Source of the DNA: Oceanispirochaeta sp.
GTDB taxonomy: Bacteria; Spirochaetota; Spirochaetia; DSM-2461
DNA length: 64,000 nt
Reading direction: 5' to 3'
NCBI GenBank assembly: GCA_963666275.2
Contig: CAXXOA010000001.1
Location: 1,024,001-1,088,000, forward strand
Position numbers and translations under genes: made by a program
The notes under the pieces: model-generated
Told to the model about the DNA's origin: nothing
The model's input: only the letters and a program-made list of their open reading frames with translations
The model's database searches: none
In this document: one piece after another, positions 8,302-40,710 of the stretch
Position numbering within the stretch: position 1 is the stretch's first letter
Layout of the letters: the number at the start of each line of letters is the position of its first letter

Positions 8302-8512
8302 TAAATGGCTGGAAGAACAGGGATTGGGCAATATCGAATATCTCTGGTGTTAAGCTCAGGGGTATATTTTATCAAATCAGGATTTTGTTTGCTCCATGGA
8401 GTGAACCGCCTCCGGTCACAGCTTCGCTGTTGCTCGTTTATACTTCCGACCCGTGGAGACCCGCATACTCATTTGGTGTGGGGGGGAGGGTAAAAGCCTC
8501 GGGCTACCCGAT
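8296..8512 (+). mobile_element. Degenerate 3' remnant of a group IIC intron (end of RT ORF, domains V-VI) with a 40-bp insert in domain V
   Basis: Translates NKWLEEQGL.NI.YLWC; ends GGCTACCCGAT like the intact copies. Confidence 0.88.
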
Positions 8513-8552: not shown

Positions 8553-9392
8553 CTATAGGATTCTGGCACTCCCCCCCACTTGCACACTCTCTATATTGCC
8601 TTGATTATTAGTCACTTTTACAAATATTCTTGAAGGGAGATTCAAAGTATATCCTTGTTCAAACTCGAAAGAACGATCGTTATTATCATCGCTATATTTC
8701 GACAAATAACAGGCTAATGCTCCATTTGATGTTCCTGTTGCAGACTCCTCATCTATTCCATATCTTGGTGCAAAGTTTCTTGTATGTGCATCGGCCTCAT
8801 TTATTGATTCAAGGCAAAAAGCATGTATTCCAACAACATCATATTTTTCACTTATCTTAGAAATACAATTGCTATTGGCTTTAAGCTGATTTAATGTCTT
8901 TAAATTTCGTATTGGAAGAATAATATCCCGTAATCCTGTTGATACAATCTGGATTGGCAAATCCGCATAGAAGTCATTATGATCCATGCTAAAGCAATTC
9001 ATTAATTCTTTTCTATCTATAATATCACCGAATTTAGGAATATTTTGTTCCATATAAACAAGTTTATCATATATTTCAAGCTGTAATACTCCAGCTCTAG
9101 TCTCTTGAGTATAACGACCACTTTTGATCACATGAAGATCTCTTAATAAATTAAAAGTTGCGATTGTTGCATGACCGCATAAATCAACTTCAGAAACAGT
9201 AGTGAAAAATTTGACCTTGAAATCAGCATATAAAGATTTCATAATAAACGCTGTCTCAGAAAAGCCAATGTCTTTCGCAATATTTAGCATTTCGTTCTCT
9301 GATAATATATCTGCATCCAAGACCACGCCAGCAGGATTCCCTCCCATATTATTATATTGAAATGCAGATATTTTATAGATTTGTCTATTCAT
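8553..9392 (-). CDS. PhzF-family isomerase/epimerase (cassette 11)
   Basis: GGNPAGVV, FSETAF, EVDLCGHAT, EESATGTSNG. Confidence 0.92.
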   Translation of the reverse strand: MNRQIYKISAFQYNNMGGNPAGVVLDADILSENEMLNIAKDIGFSETAFIMKSLYADFKVKFFTTVSEVDLCGHATIATFNLLRDLHVIKSGRYTQETRAGVLQLEIYDKLVYMEQNIPKFGDIIDRKELMNCFSMDHNDFYADLPIQIVSTGLRDIILPIRNLKTLNQLKANSNCISKISEKYDVVGIHAFCLESINEADAHTRNFAPRYGIDEESATGTSNGALACYLSKYSDDNNDRSFEFEQGYTLNLPSRIFVKVTNNQGNIESVQVGGSARIL

Positions 9393-10150: not shown

Positions 10151-10440
10151 TCTTTTTCTTATTTAACTTTATTTAAGCGCCGAAGGCGTCAGCCTGACGA
10201 GACTGTAGAAACACTCTATTTGAATATTTTTCCCTCTTTTTAAAATAGAATTATTCAGAGAATTATTCATCTCTCCATTTACGAATTTCTATCCATTAAA
10301 CCCGCATATATTCCATTACAATTGAATATATCTCTTAAAACTTCCAATCTCATTGGTTCTTTCGTATTCCTACAGACTATACCGCTGAAATTTCCCGATA
10401 TTATGCACCATGCAATACCGTAACCATTATATTCTGAGTA

Positions 10441-10514
10441 TGCTTCCGACCCGTGCGGACCCGCATGCTCATTTGGTGTGGGGGCTGGAGCTTAAAAGCC
10501 TCGGGCTACCCGAT
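10441..10514 (+). mobile_element. Short group IIC intron 3' remnant (part of DV, plus DVI)
   Basis: CCGTGCGGACCCGCATGC..TGGTGTGGGGGCTGGAG..GGCTACCCGAT, followed by TTACGCAGA (R'' half of the TA cassette). Confidence 0.88.
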
Positions 10515-14004: not shown

Positions 14005-15914
14005 GTACGCCTGACATGGCAATAAACTTATGAGTTGAAAGTCCACTACAGCTACCCACGTATAGTAAACATGCTATACCAACTGTTAGCCGACGGCAAG
14101 GGCAATTCCGTGAGGAATTGTCTGGAGGAAGCCTGAGTGCAAAACCGGGAGCCCATGTATAAGAATGTGATATGGAATGCGAGTCACGCAGCATTCCACC
14201 CCCCAGTTCCGGAGGCTGGTCGCAAACAAGTTTGCTGCTCGCCCATGCAGCCTAGGGCGAGTCAGCCAATGATGACGATGCCCCGTGGGTGAGGGATAGG
14301 GTAAATCACAGGGTTGTCCGGCCCTGGTCGTAAACTTCGCTTGCTGCTCGCCCATGCAACCGGGGCATAGTAGCCAACGCCCGGAGTAATGTCCGGTTCA
14401 TGGTGAAGGCCTGAACATTTCACAAGGAGGAGCCTTATGGTTCTCAAAGGAACAATTTCAGTTTATGCCGGAATCACTTTTGGCGGACCATGGAGAAACA
14501 AGCCTTGAACGAATCTATGATGGATTTGATTTTATCCTCTGAAAATATGCACAAAGCCTGGAAACAGGTCAAACGCAATGGAGGTAGCCCTGGAATCGAC
14601 GGTATCACTGTCGAGAAGTTTCCAGGATATCTGAAAACCAGATGGCCTAGAATCAAACGAGCTTTGCTCAACGGGTACTATGTACCTTCTCCGGTGCTGA
14701 GGGTAGAAATCCCGAAGAAATCCGGAGGCTGGTCGCAAACAAGTTTGCTGCTCGCCCATGCAACCGGGGGAAAACGGATGCTGGGAATCCCGACAGTTCT
14801 AGACAGGGTTATCCAGCAGGCTATTTCACAGGTTCTGAATCCCATATTTGATCCGGATTTCTCGGAGCATAGCTATGGATTCAGACCGGGAAGATCGGCT
14901 CACGGAGCAGTGAAACAGGTAAATCAACATGTCAAATCCGGGTATAGATACGCCGTGGATCTGGACTTGGAAAAGTTCTTTGATACAGTTAATCATGATA
15001 TCCTGATGCATTTTGTGGCTGTAAAAGTCTGGGACAAATCTGTCCTCAGACTCATCGGCCGTTACCTGAGAGCCGGTATTCAGTTGGACAATGGAAAAGT
15101 GATTCCTACAGACATCGGCACACCCCAAGGCGGGCCCTTATCACCTCTGCTTTCCAATATCCTCCTTGATCGGTTGGATATGGAACTGGAGAGAAGAAAT
15201 GTGAGGTTCGCACGGTATGCAGATGACACTATCCTTTTAACGAAGAGATTGTGTGATGCTAGGAAGATCCTACAGGAAGTTTCAATATTTCTGGTAAGGA
15301 AATTGAAATTGGTAGTGAATCAGGAGAAAACGAAAGTTGCAAAGATAAGGGAGTGCAGTTTCCTGGGATTCACATTCAAGGGTAAGAAGATTCGCTGGAC
15401 AGAGTCGTCCTTTGAGGATTTTCGGTATCATCTGAAATATCTGACAAGGCGTTCCTGGGGTGTTTCCATGGAATACAGAATCGGGAAACTCAATGAGTAT
15501 ATCCGGGGCTGGATGAACTACTATGGGATCTCCCAATATTACAGCCCTATACAGAATCTTGATGACTGGCTCCTTAGGAGGATTCGCATGTGCTACTGGA
15601 AACAGTGGCGATATCCCAGAACGAAAGTCAGGAAACTGATGGAACTGGGAATTCCGAAAGATTTTGCCATTATCACCGGTGCCAGTAGTAAATCCTATTG
15701 GCATCTCTCCAAGTCTTACGCTACCAATGCAGCTATGTCCAATAAATGGCTGGAAGAGCAGGGATTGGTCAATATCAAATATCTGTGGTGTAAAGCCCAG
15801 GGATATATCTGATCAAATCAGGATTTCGTTTGCTCCATGGAGTGAACCGCCCCGTGCGGACCCGCATGCGGGGTGGTGTGGGGGCTGGAGGTTAAAAGCC
15901 TCCGGCTACCCGAT
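14005..15914 (+). mobile_element. Group IIC-attC intron, species 1, copy A (internally deleted ribozyme)
   Basis: GTACG 5' end, CCCGAT 3' end; about 230 bp present in the other copies is replaced near 14322-14365. Confidence 0.92.
14490..15812 (+). CDS. ltrA: Group II intron RT/maturase without endonuclease domain, with 14-aa insert
   Basis: GTPQGGPLSP, RYADD, domain X. Confidence 0.95.
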   Translation: MEKQALNESMMDLILSSENMHKAWKQVKRNGGSPGIDGITVEKFPGYLKTRWPRIKRALLNGYYVPSPVLRVEIPKKSGGWSQTSLLLAHATGGKRMLGIPTVLDRVIQQAISQVLNPIFDPDFSEHSYGFRPGRSAHGAVKQVNQHVKSGYRYAVDLDLEKFFDTVNHDILMHFVAVKVWDKSVLRLIGRYLRAGIQLDNGKVIPTDIGTPQGGPLSPLLSNILLDRLDMELERRNVRFARYADDTILLTKRLCDARKILQEVSIFLVRKLKLVVNQEKTKVAKIRECSFLGFTFKGKKIRWTESSFEDFRYHLKYLTRRSWGVSMEYRIGKLNEYIRGWMNYYGISQYYSPIQNLDDWLLRRIRMCYWKQWRYPRTKVRKLMELGIPKDFAIITGASSKSYWHLSKSYATNAAMSNKWLEEQGLVNIKYLWCKAQGYI

Positions 15915-18233: not shown

Positions 18234-20264
18234 GTACGCCTGACATGGCAATAAACTTATGAGGTGAAAGTCCTCTACAGCTACCCACGTATAGTAAACA
18301 TGCTATACCAACTGTTAGCCGACGGCAAGGGCAATTCCGTGAGGAATTGTCTGGAGGAAGCCTGAGTGCAAAACCGGGAGCCCATGTACAAGAATGTGAT
18401 AGAAGGCCCAGTTCTGGAGGTGAGTCAGCCAATGATGACGATGCCCCGTGGGTGAGGGATAGGGTAAATCACAGGGTTGTCCGGGGAATGTTTATTGTCT
18501 TATTCGGGGAGATCTGTCTGCAAGGCGGTAACACCGGTTTGACCGTGAGAATCCGGAGGATACCGGGGTAACAAATCCAGGCCTATCAGGGGATGACACT
18601 CTGATAAGGAGCCGTTTATACGGAACACAAAGAAGTCGTCACAGCGATTCAAACCGGATGATACAGCGTCAGCAGGAGTAATTCAACTGATAAGCAGACA
18701 GAAGTCAGCAGAAGGCATAGTAGCCAACGCCCGGAGTAATGTCCGGTTCATGGTGAAGGTCTGAACATTTCACAAGGAGGAGCCTTATGGTTCTCAAAGG
18801 AACAATTTCAGTTTATGCCGGAATCACTTTTGGCGGACCATGGAGAAACCAGCCTTGAACGAATCTATGATGGATTTGATTTTATCCTCTGAAAATATGC
18901 ACAAAGCCTGGAAACAGGTCAAACGCAATGGAGGTAGCCCTGGAATCGACGGTATCACTGTCGAGAAGTTTCCAGGATATCTGAAAACCAGATGGCCTAG
19001 AATCAAACGAGCTTTGCTCAACGGGTACTATGTACCTTCTCCGGTGCTGAGGGTAGAAATCCCGAAGAAATCCGGAGGCTGGTCGCAAACAAGTTTGCTG
19101 CTCGCCCATGCAACCGGGGGAAAACGGATGCTGGGAATCCCGACAGTTCTAGACAGGGTTATCCAGCAGGCTATTTCACAGGTTCTGAATCCCATATTTG
19201 ATCCGGATTTCTCGGAGCATAGCTATGGATTCAGACCGGGAAGATCGGCTCACGGAGCAGTGAAACAGGTAAACCAACATGTCAAATCCGGGTATAGATA
19301 CGCCGTGGATCTGGACTTGGAAAAGTTCTTTGATACAGTTAATCATGATATCCTGATGCATTTTGTGGCTGTAAAAGTCCGGGACAAATCTGTCCTCAGA
19401 CTCATCGGCCGTTACCTGAGAGCCGGTATTCAGTTGGACAATGGAAAAGTGATTCCTACAGACATCGGCACACCCCAAGGCGGGCCCTTATCACCTCTGC
19501 TTTCCAATATCCTCCTTGATCGGTTGGATATGGAACTGGAGAGAAGAAATGTGAGGTTCGCACGGTATGCAGATGACACTATCCTTTTAACGAAGAGATT
19601 GTGTGATGCTAGGAAGATCCTACAGGAAGTTTCAATATTTCTGGTAAGGAAATTGAAATTGGTAGTGAATCAGGAGAAAACGAAAGTTGCAAAGATAAGG
19701 GAGTGCAGTTTCCTGGGATTCACATTCAAGGGTAAGAAGATTCGCTGGACAGAGTCGTCCTTTGAGGATTTTCGGTATCATCTGAAATATCTGACAAGGC
19801 GTTCCTGGGGTGTTTCCATGGAATACAGAATCGGGAAACTCAATGAGTATATCCGGGGCTGGATGAACTACTATGGGATCTCCCAATATTACAGCCCTCT
19901 ACAGAACCTTGATGACTGGCTCCGTAGGAGGATTCGCATGTGCTACTGGAAACAGTGGCGATATCCCAGAACGAAAGTCAGGAAACTGATGGAACTGGGA
20001 ATTCCGAAAGATTTTGCCATTATCACCGGTGCCAGTAGTAAATCCTATTGGCATCTCTCCAAGTCTTACGCTACCAATGCAGCTATGTCCAATAAATGGC
20101 TGGAAGAGCAGGGATTGGTCAATATCAAATATCTGTGGTGTAAAGCCCAGGGATATATCTGATCAAATCAGGATTTCGTTTGCTCCATGGAGTGAACCGC
20201 CCCGTGCGGACCCGCATGCGGGGTGGTGTGGGGGCTGGAGGTTAAAAGCCTCCGGCTACCCGAT
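18234..20264 (+). mobile_element. Group IIC-attC intron, species 1, copy B (2031 bp)
   Basis: GTACG...CCCGAT; DV GAACCGCCCCGTGCGGACCCGCATGCGGGGTGGT. Confidence 0.95.
18840..20162 (+). CDS. ltrA: Group II intron RT/maturase with 14-aa insert
   Basis: YADD; near-identical to the other species 1 copies. Confidence 0.95.
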   Translation: MEKPALNESMMDLILSSENMHKAWKQVKRNGGSPGIDGITVEKFPGYLKTRWPRIKRALLNGYYVPSPVLRVEIPKKSGGWSQTSLLLAHATGGKRMLGIPTVLDRVIQQAISQVLNPIFDPDFSEHSYGFRPGRSAHGAVKQVNQHVKSGYRYAVDLDLEKFFDTVNHDILMHFVAVKVRDKSVLRLIGRYLRAGIQLDNGKVIPTDIGTPQGGPLSPLLSNILLDRLDMELERRNVRFARYADDTILLTKRLCDARKILQEVSIFLVRKLKLVVNQEKTKVAKIRECSFLGFTFKGKKIRWTESSFEDFRYHLKYLTRRSWGVSMEYRIGKLNEYIRGWMNYYGISQYYSPLQNLDDWLRRRIRMCYWKQWRYPRTKVRKLMELGIPKDFAIITGASSKSYWHLSKSYATNAAMSNKWLEEQGLVNIKYLWCKAQGYI

Positions 20265-22144: not shown

Positions 22145-24118
22145 GTACGCCCGGCATGGGTATCAACTTATGGGGTGAAAGTCCCCTGCAGGTTCTCACA
22201 GATAGTTAATGCTATCCAAACTGCTAGCCAGAGGCAAGGGCATCTTCGTGAGGAGTTGTCTGAAGGAAGCCCGACGGCAAAACCGGGAACCGATGAACAA
22301 AAATGTGATATAAGGCCTAGTTTCAGAGACGAGTTAGCTAACGATAACGATGTCCGGTGAGAGTGAAACAGGGTAAATCACACGGTTGTCCGGGGAAAGC
22401 TGATACCCTTATCCGGGGAGGCCTGTTTGCACGGCGATTTTGATGAAGACCTTTCGGAATAATCGGCAGAAGGATGCCGATCAAAGCAAATCCCGGCTGT
22501 TCACAAGGTGGCAATTGTGAAACGGAGCCATCATCCGATGGAACACAAAATGATGTCACAGAAAGTTCTTCATGGAAAGCATTAGTGGTAGCAATTTCAC
22601 TGATTAGCAGACAGGAGTCAGCAGAAGGCATAGTAGCCAACGCCCGGAGTAATGCCCGGTTCACGGCGAAGGCCTGAACATTTCACAAGGAGGAGCCTTA
22701 TGGTTCTCAGGAACAAAACTATTTCTGGCGGATCATGGAGAAACCAGCCTTGAACAACACCTTGATGGATCTGATTCTTACATCGGAAAACATGCACAAA
22801 GCCTGGAAGCAGGTGAAGAGCAACGGAGGAAGTCCCGGAGTTGACGGCATAACCGTCGAAGAATTCCCGGCATACCTTCGGAATCGATGGGAAAGGGTCA
22901 GGCGAGCTTTGCTTTTTGGGTACTACGTGCCCTCTCCGGTTAAACGGGTCGAAATCCCCAAGAAATCCGGAGGAAAACGAATACTGGGTATCCCGACAGT
23001 ACTCGACCGGGTTATCCAGCAAGCCATTACACAGGTTCTGAGTCCGATCTTCGATCCCGATTTTTCGGATTGCAGTTTTGGATTCAGGCCGGGAAAATCG
23101 GCTCATGGAGCAGTGAAGAAGGTTCAGAGCTATGTTGTATCAGGATATGGCTATGCTGTGGATCTGGACTTGGAAAAGTTCTTTGATACAGTCAATCATG
23201 ATATTCTGATGCATCTGGTCGGCCGGAAAGTCCGGGACAAGAAAGTCCTCAGGTTGATCGGTCGGTACCTTAGAGCCGGAATTCTGGATAAAGAAGGAAA
23301 TAACCTTCCAACTGTTGTTGGGACTCCTCAAGGAGGCCCTCTTTCTCCGCTTCTTTCAAATATCCTTTTGGATCAGTTTGATAAGGAGCTGGAAAGACGT
23401 AAGTTATTGTTTTCCCGATATGCTGATGATGCCATAATTTTGGTCCGAAATCAGCATGAAGGATCTCGACTTCTATCAGAGGTCTCCAGCTTCCTGAGCA
23501 GGAAACTGAAACTCATTGTCAATGAGGAAAAGAGTAAGGTTGCACCGATAAGAGATTGTTCATTCCTGGGTTTTACCTTCATCGGGGGAAAGATCCGCTG
23601 GACAGAAAAGGCGTACCAGGATTTCCGTTACAACATCAGACGTTTGACTGGACGATCATGGGGTGTTTCCATGAAATACCGCTATAGCAAACTGAATCAA
23701 TACTTGAGAGGCTGGATGAATTACTATGGTATTTCCGAATACTACAGGCCGATTCCGGGACTTGAAGAATGGCTCAGAAGGAGAATCCGTATGTGCTACT
23801 GGAAACAGTGGCGCAGATGTCGAACAAAAGTCAACAACTTGATCAAACTAGGGATTCCGGTGCGTGCTGCTATACCTGCCGGTACATGCAGCCACTCTTA
23901 CTGGAAGATGTCGAAGACTTACACAACGAATGCAGGTCTATCCAATAAATGGCTGGAAGAGCAGGGACTAGTCAGTATTAAAGCCCTTTGGTGCAAAGCC
24001 CAAGGGTATACTTGACCAGATTGAGGAAGCTGTTTGCTTCATGAAATGAACCGCCCTGTGCGGATCCGCTTGCAGGGTGGTGTGGGGACTGGGGGAGAGA
24101 AACCCCCGGTTACCCGAT
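22145..24118 (+). mobile_element. Group IIC-attC intron, species 2 (1974 bp)
   Basis: GTACGCCCGGCATGG 5' end, TACCCGAT 3' end; sequence clearly diverged from species 1. Confidence 0.93.
22735..24015 (+). CDS. ltrA: Group II intron RT/maturase, species 2
   Basis: GTPQGGPLSP, RYADD. Confidence 0.95.
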   Translation: MEKPALNNTLMDLILTSENMHKAWKQVKSNGGSPGVDGITVEEFPAYLRNRWERVRRALLFGYYVPSPVKRVEIPKKSGGKRILGIPTVLDRVIQQAITQVLSPIFDPDFSDCSFGFRPGKSAHGAVKKVQSYVVSGYGYAVDLDLEKFFDTVNHDILMHLVGRKVRDKKVLRLIGRYLRAGILDKEGNNLPTVVGTPQGGPLSPLLSNILLDQFDKELERRKLLFSRYADDAIILVRNQHEGSRLLSEVSSFLSRKLKLIVNEEKSKVAPIRDCSFLGFTFIGGKIRWTEKAYQDFRYNIRRLTGRSWGVSMKYRYSKLNQYLRGWMNYYGISEYYRPIPGLEEWLRRRIRMCYWKQWRRCRTKVNNLIKLGIPVRAAIPAGTCSHSYWKMSKTYTTNAGLSNKWLEEQGLVSIKALWCKAQGYT

Positions 24119-24340: not shown

Positions 24341-25246
24341 TTACTTGAGTCCGGCTGTTACTGCCAGACTAATTTCCTGTTCATAATACATCATTTCAAA
24401 CTCTTGTGGAGAAATATATCCCAGAGGTTCCATGATCCGTTTGTTATTATACCAATCCACCCAGTCTAAAGTAGCCAGTTCAACCTGTTCAATCGAGCGC
24501 CAGGGACCATCTTTGTGAATGACTTCTGCCTTGTATAGACCGTTTATTGTCTCTGCCAGAGCATTGTCATAAGAGTCACCTTTACTCCCAACTGATGGAT
24601 CAATTCCTGCTTCAATAAGTCGTTCTGTATAGGAAATAGCCAGATATTGAGAACCACGATCACTATGATGGATCAGCTTTTCTGTTACCTGTCTTGCCCA
24701 CAATGCCTGATTGAGTGCATCCAAAGTAAAATCCGTTTTCATTGACGTTGATGCCCGCCACCCGACAATCATTCTTGAAAATACATCAATTATGAAAGCA
24801 ACATAAACAAATCCCCTCCAAGTGGAAACATAGGTGAAGTCAGCCACCCACAGCTCGTTTGGCCTGGAAGCAGTGAAATCCCGGTTTACAAGATCATCAG
24901 GCCTGTTATCTTTCGTCGGAATCGTTGTCCTGACTTTCTTACCACGAATTACACCACGAAGCCCCATGGCACGCATTAAACGCTCTACAGTGCATCTGGC
25001 GACGGGGATTCCTTCTTTATTCATGGCCTGCCAGACTTTTTTAGCTCCATATACACATCTATTCTCAAACCAGACCCGTTTGATTTCATCTTTCAGGTGG
25101 TTATCCCTTTTTACTCTTGGAGGCTCTCTGTCTGGATCTGATTGCCGTGATTTCATTTCGTAATAGGTTGATGGAGCTATCTGAATATTCTTACAGAGAG
25201 GCTCGACTCCATGATTTTCCCTATTCTTATCAATGAAATTGACCAT
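24341..25246 (-). CDS. IS3 transposase OrfB (DDE)
   Basis: WVADFTYV, HHSDRGSQY, DNALAE. Confidence 0.95.
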   Translation of the reverse strand: MVNFIDKNRENHGVEPLCKNIQIAPSTYYEMKSRQSDPDREPPRVKRDNHLKDEIKRVWFENRCVYGAKKVWQAMNKEGIPVARCTVERLMRAMGLRGVIRGKKVRTTIPTKDNRPDDLVNRDFTASRPNELWVADFTYVSTWRGFVYVAFIIDVFSRMIVGWRASTSMKTDFTLDALNQALWARQVTEKLIHHSDRGSQYLAISYTERLIEAGIDPSVGSKGDSYDNALAETINGLYKAEVIHKDGPWRSIEQVELATLDWVDWYNNKRIMEPLGYISPQEFEMMYYEQEISLAVTAGLK

Positions 25247-25566
25247 TATTTCTTTCGGCGGTCGAGCTCCGCCTGGGCGAAATATGCTGATGCCTTACGC
25301 AATATCTCATTGGCTTCTCTTAGCTCACGAACTTCTCTTTCAAGTTCCTTTATTCTTGCCCGTTCTTCACTGGAGACGCCTTCCTTGATACCACGGTCTA
25401 TCTCGGTTTGTTTTACCCATTTTCTCAGAGACTCCGGAGTACACCCGGTTTTTGAGGCTATTGAAATTATTGCTGCCCACCGTGATTCATAGTCTTTTTC
25501 ATGATCAAAGACCATCCTGACTGCCCGCTCTTTAACTTCTTGAGCATACCTGATTCTTTTTCCCAT
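25246..25566 (-). CDS. IS3 transposase OrfA (HTH, leucine zipper)
   Basis: [27 protein letters not shown]. Confidence 0.93.
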
Positions 25567-25616
25567 AACACAATCCTCTCATATAATTGTGTCTCCGGGA
25601 AACCCGGGGTGGTTCA

Positions 25617-26318
25617 CGGTATGCAGATGACACTATCCTTTTAACGAAGAGATTGTGTGATGCTAGGAAGATCCTAAAGGAAGTTTCAATATTTCTGGTA
25701 AGGAAATTGAAATTGGTAGTGAATCAGGGAAAAACGAAAGTTGCAAAGATAACGGAATGCAGCTTCCTGGGGTTCACATTCAAGGGTAAGAAGATTCGCT
25801 GGACTGAGTCGTCTTTTGAGGATTTTCGGTATCAACTGAAATATCTGACAAGGCGTTCCTGGGGTGTTTCCATGGAATACAGAATCGGGAAACTCAATGA
25901 GTATATCCGGGGCTGGATGAACTACTATGGGATCTCCCAATATTACAGCCCTCTACAGAACCTTGATGACTGGCTCCGTAGGAGGATTCGCATGTGCTAC
26001 TGGAAACAGTGGCGATATCCCAGAACGAAAGTCAGGAAACTGATGGAACTGGGAATTCCGAAAGATTTTGCCATTATCACCGGTGCCAGTAGTAAATCCT
26101 ATTGGCATCTCTCCAAGTCTTACGCTACCAATGCAGCTATGTCCAATAAATGGCTGGAAGAGCAGGGATTGGTCAATATCAAATATCTGTGGTGTAAAGC
26201 CCAGGGATATATCTGATCAAATCAGGATTTCGTTTGCTCCATGGAGTGAACCGCCCCGTGCGGACCCGCATGCGGGGTGGTGTGGGGGCTGGAGGTTAAA
26301 AGCCTCCGGCTACCCGAT
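25617..26318 (+). mobile_element. 5'-truncated species 1 intron (copy D'), starting at the RYADD codons
   Basis: Carries the same variants as the 3' part of copy D; ends CCCGAT before TTATATGT. Confidence 0.92.
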
Positions 26319-28016: not shown

Positions 28017-30005
28017 GTACGCCTGACATGGCAATAAACTTATGAGGTGAAAGTCCTCTACAGCTACCCACGTATAGTAAACATGCTATACCAACTGTTA
28101 GCCGACGGCAAGGGCAATTCCGTGAGGAATTGTCTGGAGGAAGCCTGAGTGCAAAACCGGGAGCCCATGTACAAGAATGTGATAGAAGGCCCAGTTCTGG
28201 AGGTGAGTCAGCCAATGATGACGATGCCCCGTGGGTGAGGGATAGGGTAAATCACAGGGTTGTCCGGGGAATGTTTATTGTCTTATTCGGGGAGATCTGT
28301 CTGCAAGGCGGTAACACCGGTTTGACCGTGAGAATCCGGAGGATACCGGGGTAACAAATCCAGGCCTATCAGGGGATGACACTCTGATAAGGAGCCGTTT
28401 ATACGGAACACAAAGAAGTCGTCACAGCGATTCAAACCGGATGATACAGCGTCAGCAGGAGTAATTCTACTGATAAGCAGACAGAAGTCAGCAGAAGGCA
28501 TAGTAGCCAACGCCCGGAGTAATGTCCGGTTCATGGTGAAGGTCTGAACATTTCACAAGGAGGAGCCTTATGGTTCTCAAAGGAACAATTTCAGTTTATG
28601 CCGGAATCACTTTTGGCGGACCATGGAGAAACCAGCCTTGAACGAATCTATGATGGATTTGATTTTATCCTCTGAAAATATGCACAAAGCCTGGAAACAG
28701 GTCAAACGCAATGGAGGTAGCCCTGGAATCGACGGTATCACTGTCGAGAAGTTTCCAGGATATCTGAAAACCAGATGGCCTAGAATCAAACGAGCTTTGC
28801 TCAACGGGTACTATGTACCTTCTCCGGTGCTGAGGGTAGAAATCCCGAAGAAATCCGGAGGAAAACGGATGCTGGGAATCCCGACAGTTCTAGACAGGGT
28901 TATCCAGCAGGCTATTTCACAGGTTCTGAATCCCATATTTGATCCGGATTTCTCGGAGCATAGCTATGGATTCAGACCGGGAAGATCGGCTCACGGAGCA
29001 GTGAAACAGGTAAATCAACATGTCAAATCCGGGTATAGATACGCCGTGGATCTGGACTTGGAAAAGTTCTTTGATACAGTTAATCATGATATCCTGATGC
29101 ATTTTGTGGCTGTAAAAGTCTGGGACAAATCTGTCCTCAGACTCATCGGCCGTTACCTGAGAGCCGGTATTCAGTTGGACAATGGAAAAGTGATTCCTAC
29201 AGCAATCGGCACACCCCAAGGCGGGCCTTTATCACCTTTGCTTTCCAATATCCTCCTTGATCGGTTGGATATGGAACTGGAAAGAAGAAATGTACGGTTT
29301 GCACGGTATGCAGATGACACTATCCTTTTAACGAAGAGATTGTGTGATGCTAGGAAGATCCTAAAGGAAGTTTCAATATTTCTGGTAAGGAAATTGAAAT
29401 TGGTAGTGAATCAGGGAAAAACGAAAGTTGCAAAGATAACGGAATGCAGCTTCCTGGGGTTCACATTCAAGGGTAAGAAGATTCGCTGGACTGAGTCGTC
29501 TTTTGAGGATTTTCGGTATCAACTGAAATATCTGACAAGGCGTTCCTGGGGTGTTTCCATGGAATACAGAATCGGGAAACTCAATGAGTATATCCGGGGC
29601 TGGATGAACTACTATGGGATCTCCCAATATTACAGCCCTCTACAGAACCTTGATGACTGGCTCCGTAGGAGGATTCGCATGTGCTACTGGAAACAGTGGC
29701 GATATCCCAGAACGAAAGTCAGGAAACTGATGGAACTGGGAATTCCGAAAGATTTTGCCATTATCACCGGTGCCAGTAGTAAATCCTATTGGCATCTCTC
29801 CAAGTCTTACGCTACCAATGCAGCTATGTCCAATAAATGGCTGGAAGAGCAGGGATTGGTCAATATCAAATATCTGTGGTGTAAAGCCCAGGGATATATC
29901 TGATCAAATCAGGATTTCGTTTGCTCCATGGAGTGAACCGCCCCGTGCGGACCCGCATGCGGGGTGGTGTGGGGGCTGGAGGTTAAAAGCCTCCGGCTAC
30001 CCGAT
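28017..30005 (+). mobile_element. Group IIC-attC intron, species 1, copy D (1989 bp)
   Basis: GTACG...CCCGAT; no RT insert. Confidence 0.95.
28623..29903 (+). CDS. ltrA: Group II intron RT/maturase (426 aa)
   Basis: YADD. Confidence 0.95.
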   Translation: MEKPALNESMMDLILSSENMHKAWKQVKRNGGSPGIDGITVEKFPGYLKTRWPRIKRALLNGYYVPSPVLRVEIPKKSGGKRMLGIPTVLDRVIQQAISQVLNPIFDPDFSEHSYGFRPGRSAHGAVKQVNQHVKSGYRYAVDLDLEKFFDTVNHDILMHFVAVKVWDKSVLRLIGRYLRAGIQLDNGKVIPTAIGTPQGGPLSPLLSNILLDRLDMELERRNVRFARYADDTILLTKRLCDARKILKEVSIFLVRKLKLVVNQGKTKVAKITECSFLGFTFKGKKIRWTESSFEDFRYQLKYLTRRSWGVSMEYRIGKLNEYIRGWMNYYGISQYYSPLQNLDDWLRRRIRMCYWKQWRYPRTKVRKLMELGIPKDFAIITGASSKSYWHLSKSYATNAAMSNKWLEEQGLVNIKYLWCKAQGYI

Positions 30006-32713: not shown

Positions 32714-34702
32714 GTACGCCCGACATGGCAATAAACTTATGAGGTGAAAGTCCTCTACAGCTACCCACGTATAGTAAACATGCTATACCAACTGTTAGCC
32801 GACGGCAAGGGCAATTCCGTGAGGAATTGTCTGGAGGAAGCCTGAGTGCAAAACCGGGAGCCCATGTACAAGAATGTGATAGAAGGCCCAGTTCTGGAGG
32901 TGAGTCAGCCAATGATGACGATGCCCCGTGGGTGAGGGATAGGGTAAATCACAGGGTTGTCCGGGGAATGTTTATTGTCTTATTCGGGGAGATCTGTCTG
33001 CAAGGCGGTAACGGCGGTTTGACCGTGAGAATCCGGAGGATACCGGGGTAATAAATCCAAGCCTATCAGGGGATGACACTCTGATAAGGAGCCGTTTATA
33101 CGGAACACAAAGAAGTCGTCACAGCGATTCAAACCGGATGATACAGCGTCAGCAGGAGTAATTCTACTGATAAGCAGACAGAAGTCAGCAGAAGGCATAG
33201 TAGCCAACGCCCGGAGTAATGTCCGGTTCATGGTGAAGGTCTGAACATTTCACAAGGAGGAGCCTTATGGTTCTCAAAGGAACAATTTCAGTTTATGCCG
33301 GAATCACTTTTGGCGGACCATGGAGAAACCAGCCTTGAACGAATCTATGATGGATTTGATTTTATCCTCTGAAAATATGCACAAAGCCTGGAAACAGGTC
33401 AAACGCAATGGAGGTAGCCCTGGAATCGACGGTATCACTGTCGAGAAGTTTCCAGGATATCTGAAAACCAGATGGCCTAGAATCAAACGAGCTTTGCTCA
33501 ACGGGTACTATGTACCTTCTCCGGTGCTGAGGGTAGAAATCCCGAAGAAATCCGGAGGAAAACGGATGCTGGGAATCCCGACAGTTCTAGACAGGGTTAT
33601 CCAGCAGGCTATTTCACAGGTTCTGAATCCCATATTTGATCCGGATTTCTCGGAGCATAGCTATGGATTCAGACCGGGAAGATCGGCTCACGGAGCGGTG
33701 AAACAGGTAAATCAACATGTCAAATCCGGGTATAGATACGCCGTGGATCTGGACTTGGAAAAGTTCTTTGATACAGTTAATCATGATATCCTGATGCATT
33801 TTGTGGCTGTAAAAGTCTGGGACAAATCTGTCCTCAGACTCATCGGCCGTTACCTGAGAGCCGGTATTCAGTTGGACAATGGAAAAGTGATTCCTACAGA
33901 CATCGGCACACCCCAAGGCGGGCCCTTATCACCTCTGCTTTCCAATATCCTCCTTGATCGGTTGGATATGGAACTGGAGAGAAGAAATGTGAGGTTCGCA
34001 CGGTATGCAGATGACACTATCCTTTTAACGAAGAGATTGTGTGATGCTAGGAAGATCCTACAGGAAGTTTCAATATTTCTGGTAAGGAAATTGAAATTGG
34101 TAGTGAATCAGGAGAAAACGAAAGTTGCAAAGATAAGGGAGTGCAGTTTCCTGGGATTCACATTCAAGGGTAAGAAGATTCGCTGGACAGAGTCGTCCTT
34201 TGAGGATTTTCGGTATCATCTGAAATATCTGACAAGGCGTTCCTGGGGTGTTTCCATGGAATACAGAATCGGGAAACTCAATGAGTATATCCGGGGCTGG
34301 ATGAACTACTATGGGATCTCCCAATATTACAGCCCTTTACAGAACCTTGATGACTGGCTCCGTAGGAGGATTCGCATGTGTTACTGGAAACAGTGGCGAT
34401 ATCCCAGAACGAAAGTCAGGAAACTGATGGAACTGGGGATTCCGAAAGATTTTGCCATTATCACCGGTGCCAGTAGTAAATCCTATTGGCATCTCTCCAA
34501 GTCTTACGCTACCAATGCAGCTATGTCCAATAAATGGCTGGAAGAGCAGGGATTGGTCAATATCAAATATCTGTGGTGTAAAGCCCAGGGATATATCTGA
34601 TCAAATCAGGATTTCGTTTGCTCCATGGAGTGAACCGCCCCGTGCGGACCCGCATGCGGGGTGGTGTGGGGGCTGGAGGTTAAAAGCCTCCGGCTACCCG
34701 AT
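32714..34702 (+). mobile_element. Group IIC-attC intron, species 1, copy E (1989 bp)
   Basis: GTACG...CCCGAT. Confidence 0.95.
33320..34600 (+). CDS. ltrA: Group II intron RT/maturase (426 aa)
   Basis: YADD. Confidence 0.95.
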   Translation: MEKPALNESMMDLILSSENMHKAWKQVKRNGGSPGIDGITVEKFPGYLKTRWPRIKRALLNGYYVPSPVLRVEIPKKSGGKRMLGIPTVLDRVIQQAISQVLNPIFDPDFSEHSYGFRPGRSAHGAVKQVNQHVKSGYRYAVDLDLEKFFDTVNHDILMHFVAVKVWDKSVLRLIGRYLRAGIQLDNGKVIPTDIGTPQGGPLSPLLSNILLDRLDMELERRNVRFARYADDTILLTKRLCDARKILQEVSIFLVRKLKLVVNQEKTKVAKIRECSFLGFTFKGKKIRWTESSFEDFRYHLKYLTRRSWGVSMEYRIGKLNEYIRGWMNYYGISQYYSPLQNLDDWLRRRIRMCYWKQWRYPRTKVRKLMELGIPKDFAIITGASSKSYWHLSKSYATNAAMSNKWLEEQGLVNIKYLWCKAQGYI

Positions 34703-35528: not shown

Positions 35529-37559
35529 GTACGCCTGACATGGCAATAAACTTATGAGGTGAAAGTCCTCTACAGCTACCCACGTATAGTAAACATGCTA
35601 TACCAACTGTTAGCCGACGGCAAGGGCAATTCCGTGAGGAATTGTCTGGAGGAAGCCTGAGTGCAAAACCGGGAGCCCATGTACAAGAATGTGATAGAAG
35701 GCCCAGTTCTGGAGGTGAGTCAGCCAATGATGACGATGCCCCGTGGGTGAGGGATAGGGTAAATCACAGGGTTGTCCGGGGAATGTTTATTGTCTTATTC
35801 GGGGAGATCTGTCTGCAAGGCGGTAACGGCGGTTTGACCGTGAGAATCCGGAGGATACCGGGGTAATAAATCCAGGCCTATCAGGGGATGACACTCTGAT
35901 AAGGAGCCGTTTATACGGAACACAAAGAAGTCGTCACAGCGATTCAAACCGGATGATACAGCGTCAGCAGGAGTAATTCTACTGATAAGCAGACAGAAGT
36001 CAGCAGAAGGCATAGTAGCCAACGCCCGGAGTAATGTCCGGTTCATGGTGAAGGTCTGAACATTTCACAAGGAGGAGCCTTATGGTTCTCAAAGGAACAA
36101 TTTCAGTTTATGCCGGAATCACTTTTGGCGGACCATGGAGAAACCAGCCTTGAACGAATCTATGATGGATTTGATTTTATCCTCTGAAAATATGCACAAA
36201 GCCTGGAAACAGGTCAAACGCAATGGAGGTAGCCCTGGAATCGACGGTATCACTGTCGAGAAGTTTCCAGGATATCTGAAAACCAGATGGCCTAGAATCA
36301 AACGAGCTTTGCTCAACGGGTACTATGTACCTTCTCCGGTGCTGAGGGTAGAAATCCCGAAGAAATCCGGAGGCTGGTCGCAAACAAGTTTGCTGCTCGC
36401 CCATGCAACCGGGGGAAAACGGATGCTGGGAATCCCGACAGTTCTAGACAGGGTTATCCAGCAGGCTATTTCACAGGTTCTGAATCCCATATTTGATCCG
36501 GATTTCTCGGAGCATAGCTATGGATTCAGACCGGGAAGATCGGCTCACGGAGCGGTGAAACAGGTAAATCAACATGTCAAATCCGGGTATAGATACGCCG
36601 TGGATCTGGACTTGGAAAAGTTCTTTGATACAGTTAATCATGATATCCTGATGCATTTTGTGGCTGTAAAAGTCTGGGACAAATCTGTCCTCAGACTCAT
36701 CGGCCGTTACCTGAGAGCCGGTATTCAGTTGGACAATGGAAAAGTGATTCCTACAGACATCGGCACACCCCAAGGCGGGCCCTTATCACCTCTGCTTTCC
36801 AATATCCTCCTTGATCGGTTGGATATGGAACTGGAGAGAAGAAATGTGAGGTTCGCACGGTATGCAGATGACACTATCCTTTTAACGAAGAGATTGTGTG
36901 ATGCTAGGAAGATCCTACAGGAAGTTTCAATATTTCTGGTAAGGAAATTGAAATTGGTAGTGAATCAGGAGAAAACGAAAGTTGCAAAGATAAGGGAGTG
37001 CAGTTTCCTGGGATTCACATTCAAGGGTAAGAAGATTCGCTGGACAGAGTCGTCCTTTGAGGATTTTCGGTATCATCTGAAATATCTGACAAGGCGTTCC
37101 TGGGGTGTTTCCATGGAATACAGAATCGGGAAACTCAATGAGTATATCCGGGGCTGGATGAACTACTATGGGATCTCCCAATATTACAGCCCTATACAGA
37201 ATCTTGATGACTGGCTCCGTAGGAGGATTCGCATGTGCTACTGGAAACAGTGGCGATATCCCAGAACGAAAGTCAGGAAACTGATGGAACTGGGAATTCC
37301 GAAAGATTTTGCCATTATCACCGGTGCCAGTAGTAAATCCTATTGGCATCTCTCCAAGTCTTACGCTACCAATGCAGCTATGTCCAATAAATGGCTGGAA
37401 GAGCAGGGATTGGTCAATATCAAATATCTGTGGTGTAAAGCCCAGGGATATATCTGATCAAATCAGGATTTCGTTTGCTCCATGGAGTGAACCGCCCCGT
37501 GCGGACCCGCATGCGGGGTGGTGTGGGGGCTGGAGGTTAAAAGCCTCCGGCTACCCGAT
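35529..37559 (+). mobile_element. Group IIC-attC intron, species 1, copy F (2031 bp)
   Basis: GTACG...CCCGAT. Confidence 0.95.
36135..37457 (+). CDS. ltrA: Group II intron RT/maturase with 14-aa insert
   Basis: YADD. Confidence 0.95.
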   Translation: MEKPALNESMMDLILSSENMHKAWKQVKRNGGSPGIDGITVEKFPGYLKTRWPRIKRALLNGYYVPSPVLRVEIPKKSGGWSQTSLLLAHATGGKRMLGIPTVLDRVIQQAISQVLNPIFDPDFSEHSYGFRPGRSAHGAVKQVNQHVKSGYRYAVDLDLEKFFDTVNHDILMHFVAVKVWDKSVLRLIGRYLRAGIQLDNGKVIPTDIGTPQGGPLSPLLSNILLDRLDMELERRNVRFARYADDTILLTKRLCDARKILQEVSIFLVRKLKLVVNQEKTKVAKIRECSFLGFTFKGKKIRWTESSFEDFRYHLKYLTRRSWGVSMEYRIGKLNEYIRGWMNYYGISQYYSPIQNLDDWLRRRIRMCYWKQWRYPRTKVRKLMELGIPKDFAIITGASSKSYWHLSKSYATNAAMSNKWLEEQGLVNIKYLWCKAQGYI

Positions 37560-39486: not shown

Positions 39487-40710
39487 ATGAATTTCAGGGA
39501 GTATTTACAGAAAAAGGCCGGGATTCCGCAAAAGCAGATTCCTTTTTTTGAGCATTGGATAACACGGTACAACAACTATCAGAATCAGTTTCCTGATTCT
39601 TTCAGTCTGTCCGGATTTGAGAAGACCCTTCTCAGGGACTGTCAGGACTGGCAGATCAATCAGGCTGTCAGTGCGGTAAAGCATTATGAATATTTTATCC
39701 ATCACTATCAGCAGGGGAGTTCCGGTCAAGCGGAGGGGCAATCCGACTGGGAAACAGCTATCACCAGGATGAAAGAGATGCTGCGGCTCAGGCACCGTTC
39801 TTTTCAAACGGAAAAAGCCTATCTGCATTGGGTAGACTCGTTTAAAGATTTTACTGGTAATAAATCTCCCGATGAGCTGGATGAGAAGGATTTTAGATCT
39901 TTTTTAACTTATCTGGCGGTGGAGCGGAAGGTTTCCATGTCTACTCAGAATCAGGCGTTTAATGGAATCCTTTTTCTTTACAGGTCTGTACTGGACAGGG
40001 AGGTTCAAGACCTTCAGGATTCTGTACGGTCAAAAATACCCGCCAGACTGCCTGTGGTTCTCTCCAAAGAGGAAATTTCCCGGATCCTTTCGGTATTGAA
40101 TCCTCCCTATAGGCTTATGGCTTCCCTTATTTATGGATCCGGACTTCGACTGGACGAGTGCCTTTCATTGAGAATCAAAGATCTGGATTTTTATAAACCC
40201 TCCCTCACTGTCCGGATGGGGAAGGGAGGGCGGGACAGGACGACTCTTCTGCCTTCGGGGTTAATCCCCCCCCTGCAGAAGCATCTGGAGGATGTTAAAA
40301 TACTTTACGACAGGGACAGACGGGAGAAAAATCCGGGAGTTTCCCTGCCCGAAGCGCTGGCAGGAAAGTATCCCCATGCTCCGGAAGAGTGGAACTGGTT
40401 CTGGCTGTTTCCCTCTTCCGGGTTCTGTGAAAGTCCCTACGATCAGAAACAGGTTCGCTTCCATCAGCATCCTACAGGACTGCAAAGGGCTTTTAAAAAT
40501 GCCGTTTCCCGTGGGGGAATCACAAAAAAAGCCAGCGTTCATACCCTGCGGCACAGTTTTGCTACCCATCTGCTGGAAGCGGGGTACGACATCCGGACCA
40601 TTCAGGAACTGATGGGCCACTCTTCTGTGCAGACCACCATGATCTATACCCATGTGGCGGGTAAAAACAGAATGGGAGTTGTCAGCCCCGCCGATTCTCT
40701 GTTTCTCTGA
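39487..40710 (+). CDS. intI: Integron integrase with N-terminal extension
   Basis: YGSGLR, HTLRHSFATHLL, ELMGHS..TTMIYTHV; integron-specific insert LPEALAGKYP..EWNWFWLFPS. Confidence 0.95.
   Translation: MNFREYLQKKAGIPQKQIPFFEHWITRYNNYQNQFPDSFSLSGFEKTLLRDCQDWQINQAVSAVKHYEYFIHHYQQGSSGQAEGQSDWETAITRMKEMLRLRHRSFQTEKAYLHWVDSFKDFTGNKSPDELDEKDFRSFLTYLAVERKVSMSTQNQAFNGILFLYRSVLDREVQDLQDSVRSKIPARLPVVLSKEEISRILSVLNPPYRLMASLIYGSGLRLDECLSLRIKDLDFYKPSLTVRMGKGGRDRTTLLPSGLIPPLQKHLEDVKILYDRDRREKNPGVSLPEALAGKYPHAPEEWNWFWLFPSSGFCESPYDQKQVRFHQHPTGLQRAFKNAVSRGGITKKASVHTLRHSFATHLLEAGYDIRTIQELMGHSSVQTTMIYTHVAGKNRMGVVSPADSLFL

Follow-up and report, generated by a model that had tools for sequence, protein, structure and literature searches.

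A gene-less structured DNA element of about 42 nt that inserts repeatedly into a group II intron and at other sites in several bacterial phyla

Introduction

The DNA analyzed in this study is a stretch of 64,000 nucleotides from the spirochaete Oceanispirochaeta sp. (contig CAXXOA010000001.1, positions 1,024,001 to 1,088,000; hereafter the window), which is an integron cassette array with an integron integrase gene (TIGR02249, 390 bits, over the cut-off). Six near-full copies of a group II intron lie in it, all on the + strand, with most of the genes between them on the opposite strand. Alignment of copies gives 11 near-full copies in the whole genome, and the closest named match of the intron is a Spirochaetaceae metagenome-assembled genome (MAG; 77%). 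Introns of class IIC-attC are typically inserted opposite to cassette genes (PMC3001079), and the window introns are tentatively assigned to this class from their context. Several intron copies carry inserts of about 42 nt. These belong to a family of very small elements that invades this intron often, yet is not confined to it, and that may move as folded single-stranded DNA (ssDNA). In the following, G000 is the genome of the window (C1 to C3 being its contigs), other G numbers (G003, G004 and so on) are other genomes, L numbers are loci, and X1 to X4 are public sequencing runs.

Filled and empty intron sites

The features of the window are as follows, where RT is reverse transcriptase, ORF is open reading frame and the sign given for elements is that of the folded strand.

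14214..14255, −, 42 nt: element of intron copy A at site S1, which lies in the 5′ part of the RNA
14322..14363, −, 42 nt: apparent hybrid element in copy A, 5′ half of an S2 insert and 3′ half of an S5 insert
14727..14768, −, 42 nt: element inserted in frame into the RT ORF of copy A (site S3)
19077..19118, −, 42 nt: element at S3 of intron copy B, spread with the intron
36372..36413, −, 42 nt: element at S3 of intron copy F, the same S3 insertion
8410..8449, −, 40 nt: decayed S4 element, located in domain V of a 3′ intron remnant, with a weak model score
10436..10449, −: 3′ end (guide and tail) of an S4 element, with which a further 3′ intron remnant begins; guide and tail resemble L292
14005..15914, +: group II intron copy A, host of inserts and probably crippled by deletion (Rfam D1–D4 matches, ends, RT-maturase family matches)
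18234..20264, 22145..24118, 28017..30005, 32714..34702 and 35529..37559, +: other group II intron copies of the window
39487..40710, +: integron integrase gene (TIGR02249 match and ORF list)

The register of the inserts was fixed by pairing. All of the inserts listed in a previous sequence-only reading of the window are present. The five of 42 nt lie 2 nt to the left of the register given there, and four of these five yield the same empty allele in either register; the possible tail reported at 10441–10450 is the 3′ end of an S4 element, at 10436–10449. The empty sites that had been noticed in other copies are visible in the alignment of the 11 copies, S1 being empty in nine and also filled in copy J on C3. 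The proposal that S1 reads TCCGGAGG when invaded and TCTGGAGG when uninvaded fails, since J is filled with TCTGGAGG and copies G, I and K are empty with TCCGGAGG. The S3 inserts of A, B and F, together with those of H and I on C3, are one event carried along by the spread of the intron, and in copy A this insert adds 14 amino acids in frame to the RT (440 versus 426). The domain V remnant at 8410–8449 has a weak covariance-model score (E = 0.28), and a clean copy occupies the same domain V site in G004 (L292).

Among the public contigs, one of run X3 has a clean 42-nt empty allele of S3, and the filled allele occurs in X1. Run X4 shows inserts at S2 and S5 in a different organism, the filled S5 being in a contig that matches the window from 14335 on, and S5 is also filled in L017. 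From these clean empty, filled and foreign-organism contigs it follows that the family is not an assembly artefact, a possibility that the sequence-only reading had raised against itself.

The second insert of copy A joins S2 to S5, and the 229 bp of intron RNA between both sites are gone. The head of this insert mismatches the guide, and in the 3′ part the sequence agrees with the S5 insert of run X4. The sequence at 14322–14363 is most likely a recombinant of two inserts with a 229-bp deletion, which would explain why the hairpin of copy A had been described as imperfect. A similar fusion, of S1 to S3, occurs in G241. None of the public-run contigs listed bridges the S2/S5 junction of copy A; the region 14184–14227 has almost no contig cover in the best runs, which counts neither way because contigs drop variants.

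Further insertions were observed in or beside introns. L313 (G003) is a 5′-truncated intron fragment with two inserts of, by eye, 41 and 40 nt, the sum of which is a multiple of three. At 14173–14201, and also in copy J on C3, an unrelated hairpin insertion of 29 nt replaces 5 nt in the intron 5′ region; no further full copy of it is present in the genome, and one sediment contig spans the region with a few changes. Three intron copies on contig C3 of G000 (about 187770–187870, 270085–270185 and 273995–274095) contain a multi-hairpin insertion of approximately 101 bp that recurs nowhere else in the genome. At 24341–26318 in the window, a 5′-truncated intron fragment is adjoined by an insertion sequence that contains an ALIL frameshift pseudoknot (25172–25288).

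Structure of the element

The element is gene-less and about 41–43 nt in length, more when the hairpin is longer. The layout of its + strand is N1 N2 C TGGTC, a variable hairpin (P2), TGCTC G g0 g1 g2 N TGCA N CC and a tail of 1–3 nt ending in N0. Pairing and flanks were counted in 116 unique single copies. Base g0 pairs with N2 (base −1) in 113 copies (shuffle mean 69.6), g1 with N1 (base −2) in 114 (76.9) and g2 in 94 (51.7) with N0, the final base, which stands two places behind CC, although the copies are related and the shuffle values therefore overstate the significance. With the flank base before N1 (−3), g2 pairs in 43 copies against 49.0 after shuffling, so that there is no excess. 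The third pair of the outer helix thus uses N0, and this helix is complete only across the end-to-start junction; among the tandem junctions listed, 30 of 34 have three such pairs when two G-T wobbles are counted. The covariation score is 0.472 for 68 aligned sequences, compared with 0.114 for shuffled and at most 0.106 for slid partners. P2 covaries, in line with the earlier description of a hairpin that varies and keeps its pairing, and in one subfamily a compensated T-A pair replaces an otherwise fixed C-G pair.

The two strands of P2 differ. Among 184 distinct P2 hairpins, C(GNA)G loops occur in 63 and C(GNNA)G loops in 14 on the minus strand, compared with 1 on the plus strand, and G-T wobbles number 24 on the minus strand versus 5 on the plus strand. 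Mini-hairpins with GNA or GNNA loops are extraordinarily stable in DNA and far less so in RNA (PMC13037366). Because these DNA-stable loops and the wobbles lie on the minus strand, the folded molecule is most likely this strand as ssDNA, in which GAGCA and GACCA would form an internal loop that is pseudo-symmetric. The foot of its hairpin is GG-N-TGCA-N plus the variable guide.

Copies outside introns and in other organisms

In the genome, nhmmer gave 33 matches at E < 0.01 (39 at E ≤ 5) compared with none in the reversed genome, and reversed-pattern controls gave no match in either 41 or 201 genomes. With the covariance model, 36 copies were found at E < 0.001 among the best 150 of 1181 candidates, 11 of them in group II introns and 25 elsewhere. 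By their flanks, the latter comprise approximately 12 in or beside a CCCCTCTCC-type hairpin resembling repetitive extragenic palindromic (REP) sequences, four antisense in 23S–5S spacers, two in tandem before tRNA-Met, one in a duplicated tRNA 3′ end and six at other intergenic sites. The earlier impression that no copy lies outside intron DNA is correct within the window according to the covariance model and wrong for the genome, and the idea of an intron-specific parasite falls with these 25 copies.

The rRNA copies are antisense within the 23S–5S spacer and not sense and upstream of 23S; an empty allele of this site was not found, the spacers being too divergent. No replication-strand bias was seen, the non-intron sites splitting about 11 to 10 when assigned by hand from GC skew with contig orientation unverified. 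With respect to transcription, 23 versus 7 copies are sense in co-directional contexts (crude ORF calls), largely owing to copies adjacent to Shine–Dalgarno (SD) sequences.

The element pattern is present in 22 of 41 relatives, in at least 122 GTDB stretches and in 15 viral contigs. Of 201 genomes from the phylum, five have it, two of these with 16 and 38 copies. About ten of these matches have no hairpin and represent chance, and 20 of 213 matches were dropped before counting for a weak stem or a missing flank. The named GTDB records among the matches listed include Spirochaetia, Paenibacillus, Cohnella, Clostridia, Geobacteraceae and Fibrobacterales. The family thus spans several bacterial phyla, with members in spirochaetes and Bacillota and also in phages. 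Tandem arrays are head-to-tail, 17 with identical and nine with mixed P2; one inverted pair is present among the GTDB loci listed (L048).

Several surroundings of the element deserve description. Larger genome-specific intergenic repeats carry it at a fixed position in L185–L214 (G081, G157) and L438–L464 (G256), and the G081 repeat has differing element variants at one and the same site. At G000:C2:1193012–1193935, CCCCTCTCC-type REP-like hairpins adjoin a DUF559 gene, and two of the hairpins hold the element. In L367, near 2577–2615, the hairpin of an element is split by an approximately 48-nt copy of its own downstream flank, suggesting an element-linked rearrangement. Between the otherwise similar 23S–5S spacers at about 8620–8670 and 974230–974280 of G000:C1, an indel of approximately 52 bp is possibly another small insertion.

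Rfam 15 gave no gathering-level match in the window, with just chance-level matches over the element at E ≤ 10, and in 12 loci no match over the element except for a host-intron model spanning it in L017. By-eye comparison with the folds of the hepatitis delta virus (HDV), hammerhead, twister, pistol and hairpin ribozymes gave no fit. No description of the family was found in the literature searched by core sequence and topic, which mostly excludes subscription journals and may hold a listing in some supplementary motif table; the main text of a 2026 preprint on noncoding clusters (10.64898/2026.10.21.760802), as far as available, contains nothing relevant.

Precision and choice of target

Exact filled/empty pairs comprise the intron copies, four REP hairpins (insertion at TG|GGAG) and copies nested within another copy. 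Furthermore, in a dynamin-like gene of the Paenibacillus genus of L081 (L081 and L465–L467), three of 16 loci aligned from 37 genomes are filled and 13 empty, the insertion being in frame and of 14 codons. At S2 (head CC into G|GG) and at S7 in L018 the head differs from the target; the head is therefore not a duplicated target, and target duplication is not obligatory. Where head and target differ, as at S2, the head is element-borne; the direct repeat of 2 bp that is usually seen results from a match between guide and target.

The 116 single copies have a purine at −1 in 97 cases and mostly GG downstream, a preference for R|GG; the CCG-containing motif that had been proposed to precede each insert is not seen, there being no preference for CC or CCG 5′ of the site. 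Of 54 copies that are single or last and have a non-GG head, 21 have a right flank identical to this head, compared with 6.8 after shuffling, in a test that left out the copies embedded in the G081 and G157 repeats. In five Paenibacillaceae genomes the guide GG goes with the flank CC in 18 of 21 cases, these 18 representing about five independent site types, and the guide CC goes with the flank GG in five of eight and never with CC. An SD sequence and start codon follow the tail directly at 15 of 115 loci versus one on the control side, as is expected for an R|GG target.

These pairs bear on the reading that the family is a passive repeat of the ordinary kind, or a host-binding site, and multiplies only through slippage and when larger repeats carry it along. 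Approximately 12 of the 36 best-scoring genome copies lie in or beside one REP-like family, four are homogenized rRNA spacers, and larger repeats in G081, G157 and G256 hold many copies at a fixed place, all of which suits this reading. However, precise empty alleles at unrelated targets, in-frame insertions in genes, nesting and differing variants at differing sites do not, and the unrelated filled/empty pairs leave this reading largely refuted and highly improbable. The sequence-only reading had allowed that many genome-wide copies with no intron bias would make the element an ordinary dispersed repeat; this holds in part, but the empty alleles, nesting and guide-matched targets are not those of a static repeat.

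Introns as targets and a possible role of reverse transcription

The intron family is occupied at seven sites (S1, S2, S5, S3, S6, S7 and, in domain V, S4) over G000, G003, G004, G241 and the Spirochaetaceae MAG. Relative to non-coding plus intron DNA, the four events in 22 kb amount to a modest enrichment, with p = 0.002–0.02 for 14–26 assumed events in a rough, post hoc calculation. A non-autonomous structured micro-element that has invaded the intron repeatedly, as the sequence-only reading had it, is accordingly retained. In the GTDB scan, just two loci among the matches listed match this intron. All seven intron sites share one orientation, in which the folded strand is the complementary DNA (cDNA) side (p = 0.045 given the target composition).

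This orientation is what RT-dependent mobility would produce, the main rival of movement as folded ssDNA, though it is considered unlikely. A group II intron or another RT would copy an element transcript into minus-strand DNA or switch template, with the cDNA then integrated, and introns, which this enzyme copies as well, would for that reason be the most frequent targets. Group II RT matches are found in 17 of 22 element-positive versus six of 19 negative relatives (p = 0.005; intact in 7/22 versus 1/19), and an intact RT in all five positive Paenibacillaceae, for which there is no negative control; the SD sequences and start codons right behind the tail also point this way. However, kin share both traits, so that the co-occurrence is confounded, and the uniform orientation is weak given the target composition. 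RT matches are missing in the nearly complete G006 and G008 as well as in G058 and G108, the latter two belonging to a further set in which three of five genomes have any RT. In addition, there are copies antisense to rRNA and, by eye, to tRNA 3′ ends, and template switching alone leaves the guide-matched targets unexplained.

Search for a partner enzyme

The REP-type HUH enzyme or RAYT suggested by the sequence-only reading is disfavoured as the mobilizer, Y1 being missing in four of five element-rich spirochaete and four of five positive Paenibacillaceae genomes and no element-flanked RAYT or clustering around RAYT being found. Seven RAYT-like Y1 genes are present in G000 (L001–L007), most with GGGACGGAGG-type repeats nearby, two being tandem duplicates, one of which is truncated. 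None of the seven was seen flanked by the element, the nearest being about 1.6 kb from one degenerate copy. IS91-type Y2 enzymes were also rejected, being absent from G000 and found in ten of 22 positive versus four of 19 negative relatives; two element copies adjoin IS91-like fragments (L096, L189), which is taken as chance. DUF559, in seven of 41 genomes, goes with the host REP rather than with the element.

The integrase in the window raises the reading, judged distinctly improbable, that the element is a minimal cassette of the attC kind, without a gene, and that a tyrosine recombinase, either an integron integrase or one of Xer type, recombines it in the form of folded ssDNA. The analogy lies in two helices separated by an unpaired spacer, in a terminal loop that varies and in a helix that joins the ends, as a circular cassette would have. 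The integrase is over the cut-off in 16 of 22 positive versus eight of 19 negative relatives (p = 0.06). However, it is missing in six of the 22 positives, namely G024 (one contig, four copies) and five others; there is no fixed GTT/AAC core, the junction helix varies freely, the targets are not att sites, and the crossover would presumably fall on the opposite arm relative to the GNA strand, judging from attC anatomy.

Since no co-occurring enzyme was found in the families profiled, the folded DNA itself might be catalytic, nicking and joining itself, perhaps with a universal host topoisomerase or ligase, and with no dedicated mobilizer. About 18 positions are near-invariant across phyla, partly by circularity because the search pattern fixed them, and the invariant bases can form an alternative three-way junction. 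However, the extra helices show no variation, self-catalysis of this kind is not known to have a natural precedent, and the patchy spread (5/201 phylum genomes) fits a patchy partner or patchy invasion alike. This possibility is regarded as very unlikely.

Proposed mechanism

On balance, a gene-less element that moves as folded ssDNA by guide-set strand exchange, with excision and reinsertion via a small circle, is slightly favoured; circle, chemistry and enzyme are postulated. In the minus-strand fold, the guide would lie 5′ at the hairpin foot and pair both with the 3′ end of the element and with the target immediately 5′ of the cut site (usually CC|Y). A trans-acting nicking-joining enzyme would cut at both places and free a small dumbbell circle, which would rejoin at a new guide-matched single-stranded site. 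The junction of the element itself would be such a site, which may give rise to head-to-tail arrays and self-nesting. The intron may be hit often because it is multicopy and tolerant, has single-stranded stages and yields first-strand cDNA that is the folded strand of the element. Recombination between two inserts would then delete intron segments, as in copy A and probably also in G241.

A guide 5′ of the hairpin foot is also the arrangement of IS200/IS605 elements and of REP sequences with TnpA-REP (PMC6006769, PMC8266576). Guide and target polarity are like those of these systems, compressed into one hairpin, and ssDNA excision and reinsertion is favoured for this reason.

Several observations weigh against this mechanism. 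No mobilizing enzyme was identified among the families profiled: Y1_Tnp occurs in one of five element-rich spirochaete genomes, as one fragment in one of five Paenibacillaceae, and in two of five element-poor controls, of which G005 has a one-mismatch element copy. A scan of 146 of the 210 neighbouring ORFs found no recurrent transposase or other gene, and among 119 orphan-half metagenome loci, 25 of which were examined for a distant left end, there was no version with a gene; many orphan-half matches are chance matches in coding DNA. The data are contigs only, in which no circle or junction read was found, and the end-to-end pairing might also act in recognition while the element stays in the chromosome, with no free circle. 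The guide match is partial, 33 of the 54 non-GG heads mismatching their flank and 20 of the 54 lying at GG regardless, quite apart from the kinship of the copies and the few site types in Paenibacillaceae. Finally, in canonical systems the guide is outside the stem, whereas that of the element is within it.

It is possible, though less likely than not, that the family represents a new class: a 42-nt ssDNA dumbbell with a variable guide, in which one helix both aligns the ends and chooses the target, with an enzyme outside the Y1, Y2 and integron families or with its own chemistry.

Comparison with known elements

By size, fold and manner of insertion, the closest kind known is the cyanobacterial small dispersed repeats (SDRs; Elhai et al. 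2008). They reportedly are 21–27 nt in length, with a conserved fold, nesting and an unknown mobilizer. Like them, the element is very small and gene-less, with a conserved fold and precise, nested insertion. It differs in its greater length of 41–43 nt, in its presence in Spirochaetota and Bacillota, and in a target apparently set by a variable end-pairing guide. SDR5, a tiny gene-less repeat, inserts precisely in HIP1, a short target (PMC4390886), and SDRs are also mentioned in PMC3116915.

With IS200/IS605 elements and palindrome-associated transposable elements (PATEs), the element shares folded ssDNA, a guide 5′ of the hairpin, a target 5′ of the cut resembling its own 3′ end and no obligatory duplication (PMC6006769, PMC10055086). 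The PATE-type insertion 3′ of a short guide-chosen target resembling the 3′ end is found on the minus strand, with a partial match. Further hallmarks of PATEs are an ssDNA circle intermediate and 5′-phosphotyrosine chemistry, and their two subterminal hairpins are shared with an autonomous tnpA element. In contrast to IS200/IS605, one hairpin serves both ends instead of two subterminal ones, the guide is Watson–Crick paired inside the stem, TnpA is missing from most element hosts tested, and the 119 metagenome loci contain no autonomous relative.

REP sequences and REPINs resemble the element as short, dispersed, imperfect palindromes with a conserved internal mismatch, a conserved 5′-foot sequence and tandem clusters (PMC3116915, PMC8266576, PMC3733652). 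However, the element has no GTAG or CGTC tag at the hairpin foot, is a single unit with exact ends and not an inverted doublet, is not clustered around RAYT, and inserts into REP-like hairpins. Miniature inverted-repeat transposable elements (MITEs) and Rickettsia palindromic elements are likewise non-autonomous, dispersed, found in frame in genes and adjoining ribosome-binding sites, whereas MITEs are 70–300 bp with terminal inverted repeats of 15–30 bp (PMC3733652, PMC3184786). The element is smaller and has none; at its ends the first three bases alone pair, with an internal strand, and there is no target duplication at S2 or S7.

Significance

Very small mobile repeats are already known; what seems new is a cross-phylum family with an end-joining helix and guide-matched targets without a Y1 partner. 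The dissemination of very small bacterial repeats was described in 2021 as poorly understood (PMC8266576). The present family offers exact ends, a predicted active strand and cut position, and natural guide variants with matching targets, and its mobility is therefore testable with one synthetic oligonucleotide and cell extract. If the partner enzyme were new, it could provide a compact DNA-guided insertion tool. If the new class is real, these would be among the smallest target-programmable mobile elements, and their partner would be a new ssDNA recombinase. For the hosts, the family illustrates a route of intron decay, by deletion between two inserts, and a route by which 14 residues are added in frame to proteins, here an RT and a dynamin-like protein.
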